Shown here one piece after another: positions 24,277-31,567 of a stretch of 32,000 nt of DNA. The stretch is from positions 30,517 through 62,516 of the forward strand of contig DXJG01000002.1 of the NCBI GenBank assembly GCA_019056805.1, given 5' to 3'. Numbering within the stretch: the first letter of the stretch is position 1; the number at the start of each line of letters is the position of its first letter. This DNA comes from Candidatus Baldrarchaeota archaeon. GTDB taxonomy: Archaea > Asgardarchaeota > Baldrarchaeia > Baldrarchaeales > DXJG01. The notes below the pieces were generated by a model. It had not been told where the DNA came from. It made no database searches and was given only the letters and a program-made list of their open reading frames with translations. Both the position numbers and the translations under genes were made by a program.

Positions 24277-25686
24277 CTAAAATAATAAAATCAATGTTTC
24301 AAGCAAATTTAAAACTTGTTTACCTTTTTCTGTTAATTGATAGTATTTTCTTCTTCCTTTCCATACGCTCTTTATAAGATTTTTATCTTCCAATTCATTT
24401 AGGTGCTGATAAACAGCCTGAATAGTTATATCTTTTCCCAAGGCCTTCCATATTTCATATCCATACGATACTCCTATGTCAAGAAGTTTTAAGACTTGAA
24501 GCTTCACACTTACATTTTTTCTGAAACCAATTCTCTTACCTCTACGGATAATTGCCTCTAATACATATGGAGCCTTTAATCCACTAGCTGTTATTAAACA
24601 AACAACCCTTTCATCGTTACCGAGAGTTCCTTCATTTAACAATTTTGAAAGAGCAGCAATGGTAGAGGCACTTGCTGGCTCAGCAAATAATCCTTCAGTT
24701 CTAGCAAGAAGCTTTTCCGCTGACATAATTTCTTCATCGGAAACTGCTACAGCTAAACCATTTGATTCTCTAATAGCTTTCAAAGCAAGGAAGCTATTAG
24801 CAGGATTTCTAACTAATATAGCTAATGCTTGCGTACTAGCTTCTTTCTCATAATATTTGTCGTTTTTTTCATTGAAAAAGGCTTTAACTATTGGAGAACA
24901 TCCTTCCGCCTGAACACCAATCATGCGAGGCAACTCTTTTACGATGCCCAATTTCTTTAATTCAGTAAACCCTTTCCAAATAGAATAAATTGTTCCTCCA
25001 CTCCCCATCGGGACTAAGACCCAGTCAGGGACGTCTATTTCTTCAACTATTTCAAAAGATATAGTTTTTTGTCCCTCAAGAGTTAAAGAGTTATGTTCCG
25101 CAGTTGCATTATAAATTTTCCCTTCTCTAAGAATTTTTTCGATAAAAATTAAAGAATCATCTAATGTTTCACCCTTTTCAATTACTTTCGCATTGTAAAT
25201 GAACATTTGGGCGAGTTTTCCAATATGAGTGGCCTTAGGTACAATAATTGTTGCATAAATATGTGCTTTTGCACAGTAAGCAGCAATTGATGCACCAAGA
25301 TTACCATTAGATGCACAAACTATTTTATTATAACCGTAATCTAGAGCTTGAGAAACCATTAAAGCAGCAGCTCTGTCCCTAAAAGAATTTGTAGGGTTTA
25401 ACGTTTCATCTTTAAGAAACAAAAATTTCATTCCTACTTTCTTTGCTAAGTCCTCTGCAACTTTAAGCGGGGTTTTCCCTTCCCCTAAAGTTACTCTTTT
25501 TTGTATTTTAGGAAAAACCTTTTCATATCTCCAAATTCCACGATCTTTAAGATTTTTAAAATTGAAATCAATTTTTTCATATTCGTAAATGTATTCTAAT
25601 AACATACCACATTCTCTACATAGATAATTAACTCCTATTGGATCAAAGACACGTCCACAACTCGGACATTTCAAAGTATACATCAT
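24277..25686 (-). CDS. Threonine-synthase-like fold-type II PLP protein with N-terminal Zn ribbon, Lys-to-Arg at the PLP site and C-terminal PadR wHTH
   Basis: CPSC..CREC; LGEGKTP; NPTNSFRDR; ASNGN; EGQKT; EPASA; C-terminal YGYEIW...VYQHLNELE..NLI..RRKYYQLTEKG. ATG 25686 (GTGGAG RBS) is preferred over the ORF-track start 25761. Confidence 0.88.
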   Translation of the reverse strand: MMYTLKCPSCGRVFDPIGVNYLCRECGMLLEYIYEYEKIDFNFKNLKDRGIWRYEKVFPKIQKRVTLGEGKTPLKVAEDLAKKVGMKFLFLKDETLNPTNSFRDRAAALMVSQALDYGYNKIVCASNGNLGASIAAYCAKAHIYATIIVPKATHIGKLAQMFIYNAKVIEKGETLDDSLIFIEKILREGKIYNATAEHNSLTLEGQKTISFEIVEEIDVPDWVLVPMGSGGTIYSIWKGFTELKKLGIVKELPRMIGVQAEGCSPIVKAFFNEKNDKYYEKEASTQALAILVRNPANSFLALKAIRESNGLAVAVSDEEIMSAEKLLARTEGLFAEPASASTIAALSKLLNEGTLGNDERVVCLITASGLKAPYVLEAIIRRGKRIGFRKNVSVKLQVLKLLDIGVSYGYEIWKALGKDITIQAVYQHLNELEDKNLIKSVWKGRRKYYQLTEKGKQVLNLLETLILLF

Positions 25687-25776
25687 AAATGCTTCAACTC
25701 CACGAAAACTATTAATTGAAATAATCCCACATTTTTTAAGTCTATTTGTTATAGGATTCATTTAGGTGAACATTTA

Positions 25777-26328
25777 ATGTCGATCTTTCCCGACAATGAA
25801 GACGCCGAGTTAAAAAGACTTTCCTTCAAATTCAAGAATATTAATGTAAAAGTTCGAATACTCGAAGACATACCACAACTATTTTTAGAAGGGAAGAGTA
25901 TAGGGCCCCTGAAAAAAGATGATATCTTAGAACTAAGGCTTTGGCAAGCTATACCGCTAATAGAAGAAGGAAAAGCTAAACTAGAAGAGTTTCCAATTAA
26001 AGTATCATATACTGATATTCATAAATTTGTATGGAAGGAGACGCAGACACCTGAAATTCAAGAATTAAAAAATATTTCATATATAGGGCTTAAACAACGG
26101 GAAAAGTTAATGAAAATGTCAAGTAATGACATCGAGAAGTTTAAAACAGCGTTAAGAGATCTTATCACTGTAAGAACGAGAAAAATCATTAAATTATCTA
26201 TGCAAGATTCAGAATTAATATCGTCTCTTAAACCATTATTACCAGAAGAAAAATTACTTTACGAAAATCTCTCAAAAATATTATCTATTTGGAAACGAAG
26301 GATGTTAGAAGGAGAAGAATATGACTAG
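25777..26328 (+). CDS. gins23: GINS complex subunit Gins23 (B-A domain order)
   Basis: N-terminal beta-rich B domain (VKVRILEDIP...GPLKKDDILELRLWQA), helical C-terminal A domain (R.RKII..S; LLPEE); overlaps the mcm start. Confidence 0.8.
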   Translation: MSIFPDNEDAELKRLSFKFKNINVKVRILEDIPQLFLEGKSIGPLKKDDILELRLWQAIPLIEEGKAKLEEFPIKVSYTDIHKFVWKETQTPEIQELKNISYIGLKQREKLMKMSSNDIEKFKTALRDLITVRTRKIIKLSMQDSELISSLKPLLPEEKLLYENLSKILSIWKRRMLEGEEYD

Positions 26329-29300
26329 CATGAAAGTTGAAGGAATATTTGACCCCATCGGAAGATTTGAAGATTTTATTAAAAGTTATAGAACCGAAGA
26401 GGGTATTTACAAATATCGTAGCATGCTTCAAAAATTATCATTAACGGGAAACAAATCACTTGTAATAGATTTTGATGATTTATTAAGATTCGACCCAGAA
26501 CTTGCAAAAAGAACACTTGACGATCCAGAAGATTACATTGAAGCAGCTTCAAAAGCAATAAAAAATGTCATGGTCATAGAGGATCCTGATTACGCTCAAA
26601 AAATAGAAAAATTCCATCCAAGATTCAAAAACATCCCTAAAAAAATATCACTAAGACAAATAAGATCTCACCATATAGGCCAACTCGTAGCTATAGATGG
26701 TATAATAACAAGAGCAAGCGAGGTTAAACCACAACTAATTGAAGCTGTTTTTGAATGCCAACGATGCCATGAAAAAATGGTTATCCCCCAAGAAGAGGGA
26801 AAATATGTACCACCTGTTCAATGTGTAAATCCAACATGCAGAAGAAAAGGCCCATTTAAACTAATAGTTGAAGAATCAAAGTTCATAGACTGGCAAAAAA
26901 TACGGGTACAAGAAAGACCTGAAGATCTACCACCAGGTCAACTCCCTCGCTTCATCGATGCATATCTTAAAGACGATTTAGTAGATATTGCCAGACCAGG
27001 AGACCGCGTAACAGTAATAGGCATATTAAAAACCTCACCAGAATTTGGACAACGAAGAGGAAAACTAACAACATTCAGAGTATTCATAGAAACAAACTAC
27101 GTAGAACTAACCGAGAAAGAAGCAGAAAGACTAGAAATCACACCAGAAGAAGAACAAAAAATACTAGAACTAGCAAAAGACCAATGGATACACAAAAAAA
27201 TAATACGATCCATCGCACCCTCAATATACGGCTACGACGACATAAAAGAAGCAATAGCACTCCTACTATTCGGAGGAGTACCCAAAACACTCCCAGACGG
27301 AATGAGAATCAGAGGAGAACCAAACATACTCCTAGTAGGAGACCCAGGAACAGCAAAAAGTCAACTACTAAGATACGTCGCAAGAATAGCCCCAAGAGGA
27401 ATCTACACATCCGGAAAAGGATCCACCGCAGCAGGACTCACAGCAGCAGTAATAAGAGACCCAGAAACAGGAGGAATGAGCCTAGAAGCAGGAGCACTAG
27501 TACTCTCCGATCGCGGCGTCGCGTGTTTACATGAGGAGTCAAAGGTTTTAATCGATAATAGAATAGTTAACATAGGAAGTCTTTTCGATGAGCAACGAAA
27601 ATTTAAGGCTCGATCTGGAAACGAAGAAGTTGAAATATGCGAATTAAATACAAATACGGTTTCTATCGACTCTAAGCTTAAAACAATATCTTCAAGATCT
27701 TTATTAATAAGAAGAAAGAAGTATAAAGGCGAGATACTCGAAATAACACTAGCTTCTGGATTTAAAGTGAAAGTTACTCCCGATCATAAACTTCTAGACG
27801 GAAATACATTGGAATGGAGAGATGCTAAAGAATTTAAGAAAGGCGATTTTGTAATTGCTCCTCTAAAGCTTCCTGAGAATAAGGAAAACATATATCTTCT
27901 TGACATTATCCCAGACAATTGGCTCGTCATCCTCGGAAAAGAAGAAAAGATGGAACTCAAAAGAAAAGTACTTGCTATTTATAAAAGTTTGAGCAAATTT
28001 AACAAAAAATACGGTATAACAAAAGATTTTCTTTCTGGTAGAAGTCAAATAAAGGTCGGTAAACTGAGAAAAATATTAAAAGACCTAGGATGCTATGAGG
28101 AATGGAAAAATAAATGCCTTAAATATGGTAGAAAAGCTTCAGGAGAAATGTTAAAAGTTAATAAGATAACTCCGGAGCTAGCATATTTTCTTGGATTTAT
28201 TTACGGCGATGGCGATGTTAAAATTTCGCACAGAAGATCAAGAATATCAATAACACAATCGTTGAAAAACAGAAAACAAATAGAACGTCTTAAGAAGATG
28301 TTTCAAAGTTTTTCACAAAGGAAACTTGGAGAGTATAGAAGAAAAAGTGTAAGTTTAATAAGAGGGCAAAGAGTAGAAAGTGAAAACATCATTTTATACG
28401 CTAACTCTAATTTATTAGCATACATTTACAGCTATGTAGTCGGAGAAGGGCTGAAAAATCTTTTGAAACTGCCTGATGAAGCTTTAAAGGCATTTATCGC
28501 AGGCTGCTTAGATTCAGATGGATGTATTTCAGTCAAGAGAGGGAGAAAATCGGATAAAATCTATGAAACCGTACACATAGAGTTTCAACTATCAAAGAAT
28601 GAAGAGGAAAACAAAGCGTTTATGCTTGCCCTAAGACGATTTGATTGCTTCGCGAAACTTATAAGAGATAAGAGGATAAATAAAATTATAATAACCGGAA
28701 GAGAAGATGTTAGTCGACTTCTAAACGCTATTAAAAAATACAGTGTCAAAATTAAAACTATCCCTACTAGAAAACATTTAGTCTCTTCTCTTAGCGATAA
28801 ACTTCCAAACACTCCAGTTGCAAAAATAAGTACCCACATAATATCCTCCGTAAATAAATCTATCTTGCTTAAAAAAGGTATATGGAGTACTCTCTACGCC
28901 TATAAAAATAAAAGATATCAACCCTCCAGACAACAACTTCTAAAAATCAAAAATGAAATTTTCGACTTCTTGGATGAAAAGCTACGAAATCAAATAGAAC
29001 TACTAACATCCCGAGACTACTTTCTAGACAAGATAGTTGAAATAAAAACAGAGAAATACTCAGGATACGTCTACGATCTTTACGTTCCAAAATACCATAA
29101 CTTTGTATGTGACGGAATTATAGTGCATAATTGCATCGACGAATTTGACAAAATGAACCCGCAAGACAGGGTAGCCATCCATGAAGCGATGGAGCAGCAG
29201 TCTTATCATCCATCCTTTGAAATTACTTTGGCAGATGGAGCCAAGGTTAAAATCGGGGATTTCGTCGATGCCCTTTTCGAACAATTTCCAGATAGAAAAA

Positions 29301-31567
29301 TAGATGGAATAGAATGCGAAATTCTTCAAATATCAGATCTAAATATTGAAATTCTTACCACGGATTTTGATAAAATATTTAAAACAAAAATTAACAGAGT
29401 TAGCAGACATAAAGCACCAAGTCAATTTGTAAGAATACTATATTCAAATGGTAGAGAGATACTTGTAACTCCAGAACATCCCATATTCGTTTTTGAAAAT
29501 GGAGAAATTAAAACTATAAGTGCAGATAAATTAAAAGTTGGGTCCTTTGTTCCGGCAGTTGAAAAAATCGAGTTTAAGGGGAGTTACAAACTAGATACCG
29601 ATGCGGGTAATGGAAGAAAAAAGGTTATACTCCCGGAAGTAATACAAGTTCCAATTGCTAGATTTTTGGGCTACTATGCGGCTGAAGGTTATTCCTATAA
29701 TGGGGCCACTGCAGAAATTGGATTGAGTAATACAAATCAAGATATAATTTTAAACATGAAATCTGTTGTGGAAGAAGCTTTCGGAATAAGTCCAATTGAC
29801 TATGTTGATGTAAATAGAACACTACGTATCGTATCTAAGTCTCTTTACAACTATATGTCTAAAAACTTTCCAGAATTAATGAAAAGAAGTACTGATAAAC
29901 GAATTCCACAAAAAATATTTGTAGCAGGTAAAAGGGAGAGAATAGAGTTTTTAAAGACAGCCTTTGAAGGAGATGGATCCATTGAAAGTGAAGCAATTGC
30001 TTATTCAACCTCTTCAAAAGGTCTTGCCGAAGACTACCAGGACTTGCTTTTAACTCTTGGAATACATTCTCGAATATGCAAAGATGTTTATGATTTACCA
30101 AAAGGGCAATTAAAACGATACCGTTACAAAGTCTACATAACTGGAGATAGCCTGAAAAAATTTGTAGACATTGTCATTCCTGAGCTTAAGTCACACGAAA
30201 AACTCAAAAAACTTGTTGAGAGGAGTGAAAGAATTAACAGAAAGCACGATGTTTTACCACCGTACGTTGGAACGATGATAATAAAATGTCTAAAAAAGCT
30301 TGGCATGCCTTATAACGGTTACTTTAACGAACATATAAACGGAAATTACGGAATAACAAGAGAAGTTGTGAATAGATATTTGAATATCATCGAAAGCAAG
30401 ATCAAAGAACTTGAAAAAGATATCAGAAATATAAATGATCTGCGAAAACTAAGGCAAACAATTGGTTATTCTCAAGCTAAAGTCGCAAAACTGATTAATG
30501 TAGCAAGAAGTACAATTGACTACATGGAAAGAGGCGGTTACGACTCAGAGAAAAGAAATAAACTGATACACGAGTTTAAAACGGCAGTATTAAAGGAAAT
30601 TGAGGAAACAAAAGAAATAGTCAATAAGATCAAAAAGTTAAAGAAATTTAGATGGCTAAGAGTAAAAAACGTAGAAATTGTAGATAACTGTGGAGAATTA
30701 AAAACAGAATGGGTCTATGATGTTACAGTGGAGCCAACAAGGAATTTCATAAGTCATGGACTTATACTTCACAATACAATTAGTATTGCCAAGGCTGGTA
30801 TTATTGCTACTCTTAATGCGCGTACGGCTATTTTGGCTGCTGCTAATCCTAAGCTTGGTAGGTATGATCCTTATAGGCCTCCGGTGGATAATATAAATCT
30901 TCCACCGACAATTTTGTCTCGTTTTGATTTGATTTTTATTTTGACGGATAGGCCTAGGGTGGAGGTAGATAAGCAGGTGGCTGAGCATATTCTTGCTTTG
31001 CACCAGATGAGGACTGTGGAGCCGCCGATACCTCCTGATCTTCTTCGAAAATATATTGCATATGCTAGGAAAAATGTTCATCCAGTGTTAACTCCTGAAG
31101 CTGCACAAAAAATTGAGCAGTTCTATTTGGAGCTCAGAAGTGTAGGTGAGGCTCCAACGTCTCCTGTACCGATAACAGCAAGGCAGTTAGAAGCTTTGAT
31201 TAGATTAGCTGAGGCTCATGCAAGGATGGCTCTCAGAGATAAGGTAACTGTCGAGGATGCTGAGGAAGCAATACGTCTCATGAAGCTGTCCTTGCAACAA
31301 GTAGGAATTGATAGTGAGACAGGTCAACTTGATATAGACCTAATAATGACAGGACACAGTAAATCGCAGAGAGATAAGATGGAAAAAATATTAGATTTAA
31401 TAGACGAATTAGGAGAAGAACCAGACAAAGCTGTTCCAATATCTAAACTCATTGAAAGAGCAAGCATAGAAAACATTGATGAGGATTTCGTTAAAAGAGC
31501 TGTAGAACGAATGAAAAAGGAAGGCATACTCTTCGAACCAAAGCCTGGCTATGTCAAAAAAGCTTAA
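26321..31567 (+). CDS. mcm: MCM replicative helicase precursor (1748 aa) with two inteins; spliced product 687 aa
   Basis: Zn finger CQRC..CVNPTC, Walker A GDPGTAKS, STAAGLTAAV, Walker B CIDEFDKM, AAANP, arginine finger LSRFDL, C-terminal wHTH. Confidence 0.97.
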   Translation: MTSMKVEGIFDPIGRFEDFIKSYRTEEGIYKYRSMLQKLSLTGNKSLVIDFDDLLRFDPELAKRTLDDPEDYIEAASKAIKNVMVIEDPDYAQKIEKFHPRFKNIPKKISLRQIRSHHIGQLVAIDGIITRASEVKPQLIEAVFECQRCHEKMVIPQEEGKYVPPVQCVNPTCRRKGPFKLIVEESKFIDWQKIRVQERPEDLPPGQLPRFIDAYLKDDLVDIARPGDRVTVIGILKTSPEFGQRRGKLTTFRVFIETNYVELTEKEAERLEITPEEEQKILELAKDQWIHKKIIRSIAPSIYGYDDIKEAIALLLFGGVPKTLPDGMRIRGEPNILLVGDPGTAKSQLLRYVARIAPRGIYTSGKGSTAAGLTAAVIRDPETGGMSLEAGALVLSDRGVACLHEESKVLIDNRIVNIGSLFDEQRKFKARSGNEEVEICELNTNTVSIDSKLKTISSRSLLIRRKKYKGEILEITLASGFKVKVTPDHKLLDGNTLEWRDAKEFKKGDFVIAPLKLPENKENIYLLDIIPDNWLVILGKEEKMELKRKVLAIYKSLSKFNKKYGITKDFLSGRSQIKVGKLRKILKDLGCYEEWKNKCLKYGRKASGEMLKVNKITPELAYFLGFIYGDGDVKISHRRSRISITQSLKNRKQIERLKKMFQSFSQRKLGEYRRKSVSLIRGQRVESENIILYANSNLLAYIYSYVVGEGLKNLLKLPDEALKAFIAGCLDSDGCISVKRGRKSDKIYETVHIEFQLSKNEEENKAFMLALRRFDCFAKLIRDKRINKIIITGREDVSRLLNAIKKYSVKIKTIPTRKHLVSSLSDKLPNTPVAKISTHIISSVNKSILLKKGIWSTLYAYKNKRYQPSRQQLLKIKNEIFDFLDEKLRNQIELLTSRDYFLDKIVEIKTEKYSGYVYDLYVPKYHNFVCDGIIVHNCIDEFDKMNPQDRVAIHEAMEQQSYHPSFEITLADGAKVKIGDFVDALFEQFPDRKIDGIECEILQISDLNIEILTTDFDKIFKTKINRVSRHKAPSQFVRILYSNGREILVTPEHPIFVFENGEIKTISADKLKVGSFVPAVEKIEFKGSYKLDTDAGNGRKKVILPEVIQVPIARFLGYYAAEGYSYNGATAEIGLSNTNQDIILNMKSVVEEAFGISPIDYVDVNRTLRIVSKSLYNYMSKNFPELMKRSTDKRIPQKIFVAGKRERIEFLKTAFEGDGSIESEAIAYSTSSKGLAEDYQDLLLTLGIHSRICKDVYDLPKGQLKRYRYKVYITGDSLKKFVDIVIPELKSHEKLKKLVERSERINRKHDVLPPYVGTMIIKCLKKLGMPYNGYFNEHINGNYGITREVVNRYLNIIESKIKELEKDIRNINDLRKLRQTIGYSQAKVAKLINVARSTIDYMERGGYDSEKRNKLIHEFKTAVLKEIEETKEIVNKIKKLKKFRWLRVKNVEIVDNCGELKTEWVYDVTVEPTRNFISHGLILHNTISIAKAGIIATLNARTAILAAANPKLGRYDPYRPPVDNINLPPTILSRFDLIFILTDRPRVEVDKQVAEHILALHQMRTVEPPIPPDLLRKYIAYARKNVHPVLTPEAAQKIEQFYLELRSVGEAPTSPVPITARQLEALIRLAEAHARMALRDKVTVEDAEEAIRLMKLSLQQVGIDSETGQLDIDLIMTGHSKSQRDKMEKILDLIDELGEEPDKAVPISKLIERASIENIDEDFVKRAVERMKKEGILFEPKPGYVKKA
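27524..29131 (+). mobile_element. MCM intein 1 (536 aa) with LAGLIDADG homing endonuclease
   Basis: GVA|CLHEES...VTPDH...IIVHN|CIDEFD; Cys1, His-Asn end, Cys+1; LAGLIDADG blocks YFLGFIYGDG and FIAGCLDSDG. Confidence 0.93.
29201..30775 (+). mobile_element. MCM intein 2 (525 aa) with LAGLIDADG homing endonuclease and internal HTH
   Basis: MEQQ|SYHPSFEI...VTPEHP...LILHN|TISIAKAG; Ser1, His-Asn end, Thr+1; blocks FLGYYAAEG and FLKTAFEGDG. Confidence 0.93.

Follow-up and report, generated by a model that had tools for sequence, protein, structure and literature searches.

We analysed a 32,000-nucleotide stretch of DNA (the window) from a Candidatus Baldrarchaeota archaeon, positions 30,517 to 62,516 of the forward strand of contig DXJG01000002.1; its genome, an Asgard metagenome-assembled genome (MAG), comprises 18 contigs with a total of 1.92 Mb and is 91% complete. 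The window holds a minus-strand gene whose product joins a threonine synthase (ThrC)-like domain, of fold-type II among enzymes dependent on pyridoxal 5′-phosphate (PLP), to a C-terminal PadR-type winged helix-turn-helix (wHTH), and which is a candidate one-component regulator (Table 1). The gene is convergent with the gene of a NiFe hydrogenase large subunit and divergent from genes for GINS (Sld5) and an intein-bearing MCM (gins23-mcm), the order that had been described in an earlier reading of the letters made without database searches (the sequence-only reading).

The open reading frame (ORF) is uninterrupted from 24277 to 25761 on the minus strand, and the likely product is the 469-residue form started at 25686, because homologs begin at MMYTLKC. 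This start leaves a 90-bp divergent intergenic region before the GINS gene at 25777, in which TGTGGGATTATTTCAATTAATAG is conserved across the genus. The frame continues for 25 codons upstream (25687-25761), giving a 494-residue form that is also called in one 93%-identical database entry; it would leave just 15 bp to the GINS gene, and all other homologs begin at the Zn ribbon.

The Pfam domains of the protein are PALP and PadR, and neither GntR nor Aminotran_1_2 was matched by Pfam. PadR (PF03551) covers residues 398-459 with 41.9 bits against a cut-off of 27, the PadR chains 9qbc, 9qbd and 5dym of the PDB match the winged helix (E = 2e-5), and the winged-helix residues Y410, Y426, Q427, H428 and L429 are at least 90% conserved. 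Pfam, the PDB matches and the structural model described below agree on the fusion of a threonine-synthase fold to a PadR wHTH that the sequence-only reading had noticed. That reading had also taken the N-terminal Zn ribbon for an attached part. The ribbon is real, with a weak match to Zn_Ribbon_TF in Pfam, but it is inherited and no new attachment, because the unfused, Lys-bearing ThrC paralog of the same genome (L002) has one too.

Table 1. Features of the candidate regulator gene and its promoter region, in window positions
Feature	Positions	Strand	Details
Gene of the candidate ThrC-fold/PadR one-component regulator	24277..25686	-	469 residues (P0001); stop codon 24277-24279
N-terminal four-Cys Zn ribbon, residues ~5-34 (C7, C10, C23, C26)	25585..25674	-	Cys at least 90% conserved
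Fold-type II PLP (PALP) domain, residues 65-366, proposed sensor	24589..25494	-	PF00291, 1.7e-75
AGG codon, Arg103 at the Schiff-base Lys position	25378..25380	-	alignment to solved ThrCs
Flexible linker, residues 381-391	24514..24546	-	pLDDT (predicted local distance difference test) of the model below 50
PadR-type winged helix and one C-terminal helix	24283..24507	-	PF03551, secondary structure of the model
Divergent promoter region common to the regulator and gins23-mcm	25687..25776	.	without the family palindrome

Lysine loss and pocket conservation in the fused family

Fold-type II PLP enzymes require a lysine that forms the Schiff base with the cofactor. In the window protein the motif reads NPTNSFRDR, and SFRDR aligns to SFKDR of the solved threonine synthases 2zsj, 2d1f and 1uim; the enzyme part is 36-43% identical to solved threonine synthases, with 43% to Aquifex ThrC. 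The AGG codon is unchanged in contigs of two other studies, and because these cover it without difference, Arg103 is no assembly slip. The replacement of Lys by Arg, first seen in the letters, is therefore confirmed both by the alignment and by independent assemblies.

The lysine position was compared in the best 150 cluster representatives at 50% identity, with counts taken where the motif was readable. Lys is present in 67 of 70 unfused representatives, whereas 67 of the 69 PadR-fused ones are without it (against 3/70 of the unfused). The column in the fused representatives holds Leu (18), Arg (15), Ile (14), Val (5), Thr (5), Met (4), Phe (2), Lys (2) and single Ser, Ala, Tyr and Asn, and the nearest 120 database homologs are all fused and all Arg. 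Loss of Lys is tied to PadR fusion, although not absolutely, and the substitute residue is variable; of the proposed co-occurrence of Lys-to-Arg with the fusion, the loss holds and Arg specifically does not.

In a tree of the enzyme part only (a FastTree topology, to be read with caution) the unfused Lys proteins occupy one side of a branch, and the fused proteins split into two groups. One is of the Arg type (23 rows) and contains the window protein together with both Lys-bearing fused representatives, which nest inside it; the other is of a hydrophobic type (47 rows). Lys-bearing fused genes, with the motif NPTNSFKDR, were read in one Asgard family (f9, L041-L054) and in Bathyarchaeia (L010, L012, L013 and L017), P0122 and P0125 are also PadR-fused proteins with Lys, and one Bathyarchaeia subgroup (L016) has Ile at the position. 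Arg (AGR) and Lys (AAR) codons are one base apart, and Lys in this fused minority could be either a retention or a reversal.

The remainder of the PLP pocket is as recognizable as the sequence-only reading had it, with ASNGN, PMGSGG, EPASA and TASGLK all in the window protein. N97, P98, D104, R105, G128, G230, E336 and G369 are invariant in fused homologs, T99, S101-F102 and L370 of the pocket motifs are invariant or nearly so, and N129, G228, T366 and K371 reach at least 89%; this is the pattern expected if something PLP-like still binds. Residues T88, N154, S155 and R160 of Thermus thermophilus ThrC, which we take to contact the phosphate of O-phosphohomoserine, align to L130, A196, E197 and T202, a moderately secure result, given the gaps in this part of the family alignment.

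A separate ThrC that bears the lysine (L002, NPTGSFKDR) is encoded in the same genome, a point that the sequence-only reading had put up for checking, and scores 365 bits against a cut-off of 303 with NF006050. The regulator itself lies just below that cut-off (301 bits), scores 236 bits with TIGR00260, and passes NCBIfam model NF004170, named ‘threonine synthase’ (456 bits, cut-off 421). The 442 positions of this equivalog (PRK05638) match residues 5-462, PadR part included; because they cover the PadR domain, NF004170 models the fused, mostly Lys-less family, spreading an enzyme name onto regulators. None of 14 named control genomes has a family member above the NF004170 cut-off. The tie between Lys loss and fusion supports the earlier suggestion of a non-catalytic enzyme-fold sensor joined to a DNA-binding domain, and we consider that the protein is very probably such a pseudoenzyme regulator.

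An AlphaFold 2 (AF2) model built from a 57-row alignment (pLDDT 92; predicted template-modelling score, pTM, 0.80) consists of a ThrC-like body, a disordered linker at residues 381-391, the winged helix and then one helix, and threonine synthases are its top Foldseek matches (template-modelling score, TM, 0.85 by target). The PadR part is modelled as helices 394-404, 409-416 and 422-434, strands 438-443 and 446-451 (the wing, 438-451) and helix 453-468, with block-mean pLDDT of 84-97 across most of residues 391-460 and lower values at the end. A homodimer was predicted with a score of 0.67 (best of three controls, 0.00), passing a mark that is reached by 20 of 30 proteins solved as one-chain pairs and, among 23 solved as single chains, by one; contact agreement among the runs was at least 64% and partner pLDDT at least 83. 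The predicted interface is in the enzyme-fold domain and takes in residues 96-100, beside Arg103, although this pass may stem from likeness to solved ThrC dimers.

Vitamin B6 genes and palindromes near family members

To place the family in its gene context, 12 loci from the genome collection, 29 from other Asgard genomes and 6 remote cluster representatives were read. A PF07155 gene, which encodes the S component of an energy-coupling factor (ECF) transporter, lies no more than 1.5 kb from the regulator in 20 of the 29 Asgard loci and beside it in 7 of the 12 collection loci. Among the remote representatives, one has the order regulator-pdxS-pdxT (L071), one pdxS-pdxT-regulator with overlapping stop and start (L074-L077), and one a divergent PF07155 gene (L079). 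No recurrent amino-acid biosynthesis genes stood beside family members in the loci read, and no thiamine genes were present in any of them. Three vitamin B6 transporters have been characterized in prokaryotes, and two of them, PdxU and PdxU2/HmpT, belong to PF07155 (PMC9997740). HmpT binds pyridoxamine (PMC4860826), and the regulon of PdxR in Bacteria comprises pdxST, pdxK and pdxU (PMC5320631). As far as gene context goes, the putative regulon of the family is that of a B6 regulator, with pdxST for synthesis and pdxU for uptake. Since the neighbours are pdxS-pdxT and a PdxU/HmpT-type S component, the ligand is probably vitamin B6, with a PdxU-type importer as the probable target; the amino acid or phospho-amino acid that the sequence-only reading had put forward is not what this context points to. 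At the loci of the Lys-bearing fused proteins, the S genes are mostly convergent with the regulator and not co-operonic.

The linked S genes have one or two 14-bp palindromes on their upstream side; those of Asgard genomes, which also occur in tandem, have the form [T/C/A]AAGTT-NN-AACTT[A/G/T], and those of Bathyarchaeia read TAGTT-NN-AACTA. In 18 of the 20 Asgard loci with a linked S gene, the core AAGT-N4-ACTT occurs at most 160 nt ahead of that gene; as 13 of these 18 belong to one family, the count represents about five independent lineages. From this we infer that the family protein may bind these palindromes. Two S homologs in Asgard genomes without a regulator match (L088, L089) are without the canonical palindrome, which fits the model, with n = 2 and with a more divergent regulator possible there.

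In one Ile-type locus of Bathyarchaeia (L016, 7917-7979) the 63-bp divergent gap between regulator and S gene holds a different perfect palindrome, TGCCTATATATAGGCA, and operator specificity seems to differ between subfamilies. Exact scans for TAGTT-NN-AACTA in four Bathyarchaeia genomes gave as many matches as a reversed control pattern, and an extension of the regulon there was dropped, as the extra matches lay by a cupin gene or within genes.

In the window's genome the regulator is not next to an S gene, and the S ortholog is encoded on contig C11 (G000:C11:249869-250654, minus strand). Its product is above the cut-off of PF07155 (96.6 bits), and has 4HZU_S (HmpT/PdxU2) as its sole PDB match (E = 2.3e-14). 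The genome contains six exact copies of AAGTT-NN-AACTT, four intragenic and two intergenic. One of the latter lies 56-67 nt upstream of the ATG of the S gene, adjoining further AAGTT and AACTT half-sites, and we estimate a probability of about 6e-4 that an exact copy would fall by chance within that 180-bp promoter. Other sites with high scores in a position weight matrix (PWM) were not counted as regulon, being single A/T-rich matches without orthologous support.

A genome of the same genus (G039) has an Arg-type regulator with 76% identity (L027) and an S ortholog with 85% identity, which is the first gene of an S-pdxS-pdxT operon. Ahead of this operon, the palindromes CAAGTTTGAACTTT and AAAGTTTAAAACTT lie on either side of a TATA-like TTTAATATTAAAG, with which their half-sites overlap. 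In the window's genome we found neither pdxS nor pdxT; it has three EcfT genes and encodes a kinase of the ThiD/PdxK family. Within 91% completeness, the organism looks like a B6 auxotroph that would depend on this importer.

Other PLP-related genes lie near PF07155 genes of this genome. A Lys-bearing PALP gene resembling threonine/serine dehydratases is directly upstream of the S-component gene, which also has a SufS-like class V aminotransferase gene nearby (C11:250836-251813 and L025, 2910-4055), so that genes of PLP enzymes surround the one for the presumed B6 importer. About 2 kb from another PALP paralog there is a second PF07155 gene (C14:12730-13236).

A proposed B6 switch and its rivals

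We propose that the ThrC-fold domain, which with Arg103 would form no PLP Schiff base, binds a B6 vitamer non-covalently, most likely PLP or another phosphorylated form, and that the protein would dimerize through this domain. The two C-terminal PadR winged helices of the dimer would read the 14-bp AAGTT-NN-AACTT palindromes, a fit suggested by the dimer because it would carry two winged helices on flexible linkers. The operator here would lie around a TATA-like element upstream of the C11 PdxU/HmpT-type S gene, and relatives would have the same operator ahead of the S-pdxS-pdxT operon. With B6 plentiful, the liganded dimer would occlude the region of the TATA box and the B recognition element (BRE) and uptake would be off; repression by occlusion is favoured because the TATA-like element lies between the half-sites and overlaps them. 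We infer the ligand, the DNA binding and the sign of regulation from the architecture, the Lys loss tied to fusion, the conserved pocket, the gene linkage and the palindromes. We lean towards the view that the family is the missing B6 regulator of Archaea. On this view it would be a PLP pseudoenzyme of fold-type II that senses free PLP non-covalently to switch B6 import and synthesis, would have arisen independently of the bacterial fold-type I MocR/PdxR proteins, and would be concealed in databases by the name ‘threonine synthase’.

Several points weigh against this proposal. Three of the six diverse representatives have no B6 neighbour, and the substrate of the importer is not certain, because HmpT-type PF07155 S components were first annotated as carriers of a thiamine precursor and the substrates of few have been verified (PMC4860826, PMC9997740). 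The link between palindrome and regulator comes from their co-location in other genomes, and in the window's genome the two are on different contigs. There the operator is a single canonical site with half-sites, fourth genome-wide by PWM. Upstream of pdxS in G006 and G038 (L055, L056), inspection by eye found scattered half-sites and no canonical palindrome. Autoregulation is not indicated, as the regulator's own promoter (25687-25776) is without the palindrome, and at 91% completeness the absence of pdxST is not proven. Finally, a fused minority keeps the lysine, and the function of the family therefore does not depend on losing the Schiff base.

The main alternative to repression is activation, in which the apo form would recruit the TATA-binding protein (TBP) and transcription factor B (TFB) to the S-component promoter and B6 would release it. 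At several loci the palindromes lie around the TATA-like element or on its upstream side, which would suit an activator as well, and apo-PdxR activates pdxST with PLP counteracting (PMC5320631). In the same-genus operon, however, the TATA-like TTTAATATTAAAG lies between the palindromes, which fits occlusion better, and we regard activation as possible but unlikely.

It is doubtful that the ligand of the dead pocket is an amino acid or phospho-amino acid (Thr, Ser or O-phosphohomoserine, free or as a PLP adduct) and that the protein regulates the adjacent hydrogenase or gins23-mcm genes. Derivation of the domain from ThrC and the retained carboxylate/asparagine loop S126-x-G128-N129 would suit such a sensor, but L, A, E and T stand where T. 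thermophilus ThrC has the substrate-phosphate contacts T88, N154, S155 and R160, and it is pdxST and the PdxU-type S component, not amino-acid biosynthesis genes, that recur as neighbours. As to targets, the divergent arrangement of the regulator with gins23-mcm (25777-31567, plus strand) is conserved in 11 of the 29 Asgard loci, from four families (L026-L032, L037-L040), and in L008 and L014, from a Jordarchaeum and a ‘Thermoproteota’ MAG. Even with two mismatches allowed, however, the palindrome is absent from the intergenic region 25687-25776, the region upstream of the hydrogenase gives only a two-mismatch match of low complexity (A/T), and matches over the whole window are at chance (42 against 48 expected). 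Both targets named by the sequence-only reading were rejected on these grounds; the best site lies upstream of the C11 S gene. No shared motif was seen in the regulator/gins23-mcm intergenic regions, and the pairing is likeliest an old synteny from which the S gene was lost in this genus, although there may be a real tie between B6 status and the replication genes. In one family the order is mcm-gins | regulator-S.

Sensing of another small heterocycle carried by an HmpT-type S component, such as the thiamine precursor hydroxymethylpyrimidine, is improbable. It draws on the first annotation of PF07155 as HmpT, with few substrates verified, and on the C11 S component passing no specific NCBIfam model. 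Against it, family members occur in pdxS-pdxT operons in two gene orders, the same-genus S ortholog heads an S-pdxS-pdxT operon, the sensor retains a PLP pocket including the phosphate loop, and thiamine genes are lacking from every locus read.

It is very improbable that the protein retains enzyme activity, as a threonine synthase or as a related lyase that would work through another residue or free PLP, with the PadR tail in a trigger-enzyme role. Although it passes NF004170 and some fused proteins keep Lys, fold-type II catalysis needs the Schiff-base Lys, the position can hold L, I, V, T, M or F in the fused family, NF004170 covers the PadR part and so models that family itself, and the genome has a separate Lys-bearing ThrC.

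The proposed B6 regulator can be compared with several known systems. It shares with archaeal/bacterial ThrC of the Zn-ribbon class (NF006050, TIGR00260) the fold, the ribbon, the predicted dimer interface and most motifs of the PLP pocket, and differs in the missing Schiff-base Lys, the changed substrate-phosphate positions and the additional linker and PadR domain. With the PadR family (PF03551) it has in common the Y-x-x-L/VYQHL recognition region, one C-terminal helix as in short PadRs, and palindromic putative operators. Classical PadRs, however, have about 110-180 residues and bind ligands (for example, phenolic acids) in the dimer of the wHTH and C-terminal domain, whereas here sensing would be given to an enzyme-fold domain of 370 residues, which probably also forms the dimer. 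CymR-CysK of Bacillus subtilis is presumably a comparable case of a fold-type II PLP protein in transcription control, although we take CysK to be an active enzyme that binds a separate repressor, and neither a fusion nor a pseudoenzyme.

The MocR regulators of Bacteria (PdxR, GabR, TauR) are likewise one-component proteins that combine a PLP-enzyme-fold sensor with a winged helix. They also have palindromic or repeated operators and a dimeric sensor, both of which are predicted here, and the neighbourhood of the archaeal family (pdxS-pdxT, PF07155 transporter) mirrors the PdxR regulon (PMC5320631). In MocR proteins, however, the wHTH is N-terminal and of GntR type, and the sensor is an aminotransferase domain of fold-type I that keeps its PLP Lys, in contrast to the C-terminal PadR wHTH and the fold-type II ThrC domain with Lys lost in the window protein. 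PdxR is an analogue of the ThrC-fold/PadR regulator, not a homologue, and MocR regulators are reported absent from Archaea (PMC5320631). An enzyme-fold sensor with a wHTH is thus known from MocR, and what is new here is the fold, the wHTH family, the domain order, the Lys loss and the domain of life.

B6 transporters and their regulation are described as knowledge gaps, with PdxR and PdxR2, both MocR, the sole B6 regulators named (PMC9997740). The sequence-only reading knew of no functional description of such a protein, and our literature search, subscription journals aside, likewise found none of a ThrC-fold/PadR regulator, nor of any archaeal B6 regulator. The family occurs in Asgard archaea, in Bathyarchaeia and in one complete 1.96-Mb genome (CP015193.1; homolog P0129). 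If the proposal is true, a widespread archaeal family would fill the B6-regulator gap in Archaea, and a different PLP fold and a different winged helix would have arrived at the same logic by convergent evolution. It would also correct a systematic misannotation, the name of NF004170 inflating predicted threonine synthesis in archaeal MAGs, and would support PF07155-type S components as archaeal B6 importers. The variable residue at the former Lys position (R/K in one clade, hydrophobic in the other) would offer a natural experiment in the conversion of a cofactor pocket to a sensor pocket.

Further promoter and intergenic sites

Within the regulator's promoter region, 25700-25735 shares TGTGGG...TTCAATTAAT with promoters of another Asgard family, f3 (L026-L028, L033-L035); the shared letters may belong to the promoter or mark a second binding site. 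A sigma-70 promoter and terminator scan gave promoter matches at chance, and such a scan does not apply to an archaeon. The second intergenic AAGTT-NN-AACTT copy of the genome (G000:C15:92391) lies about 10 nt before an ORF of 436 residues (92401-93711). Judged from their sequence starts alone, the ORFs by this site may encode enzyme I, HPr and a IIB component of a phosphotransferase system (PTS), which would be unusual in an Asgard archaeon.

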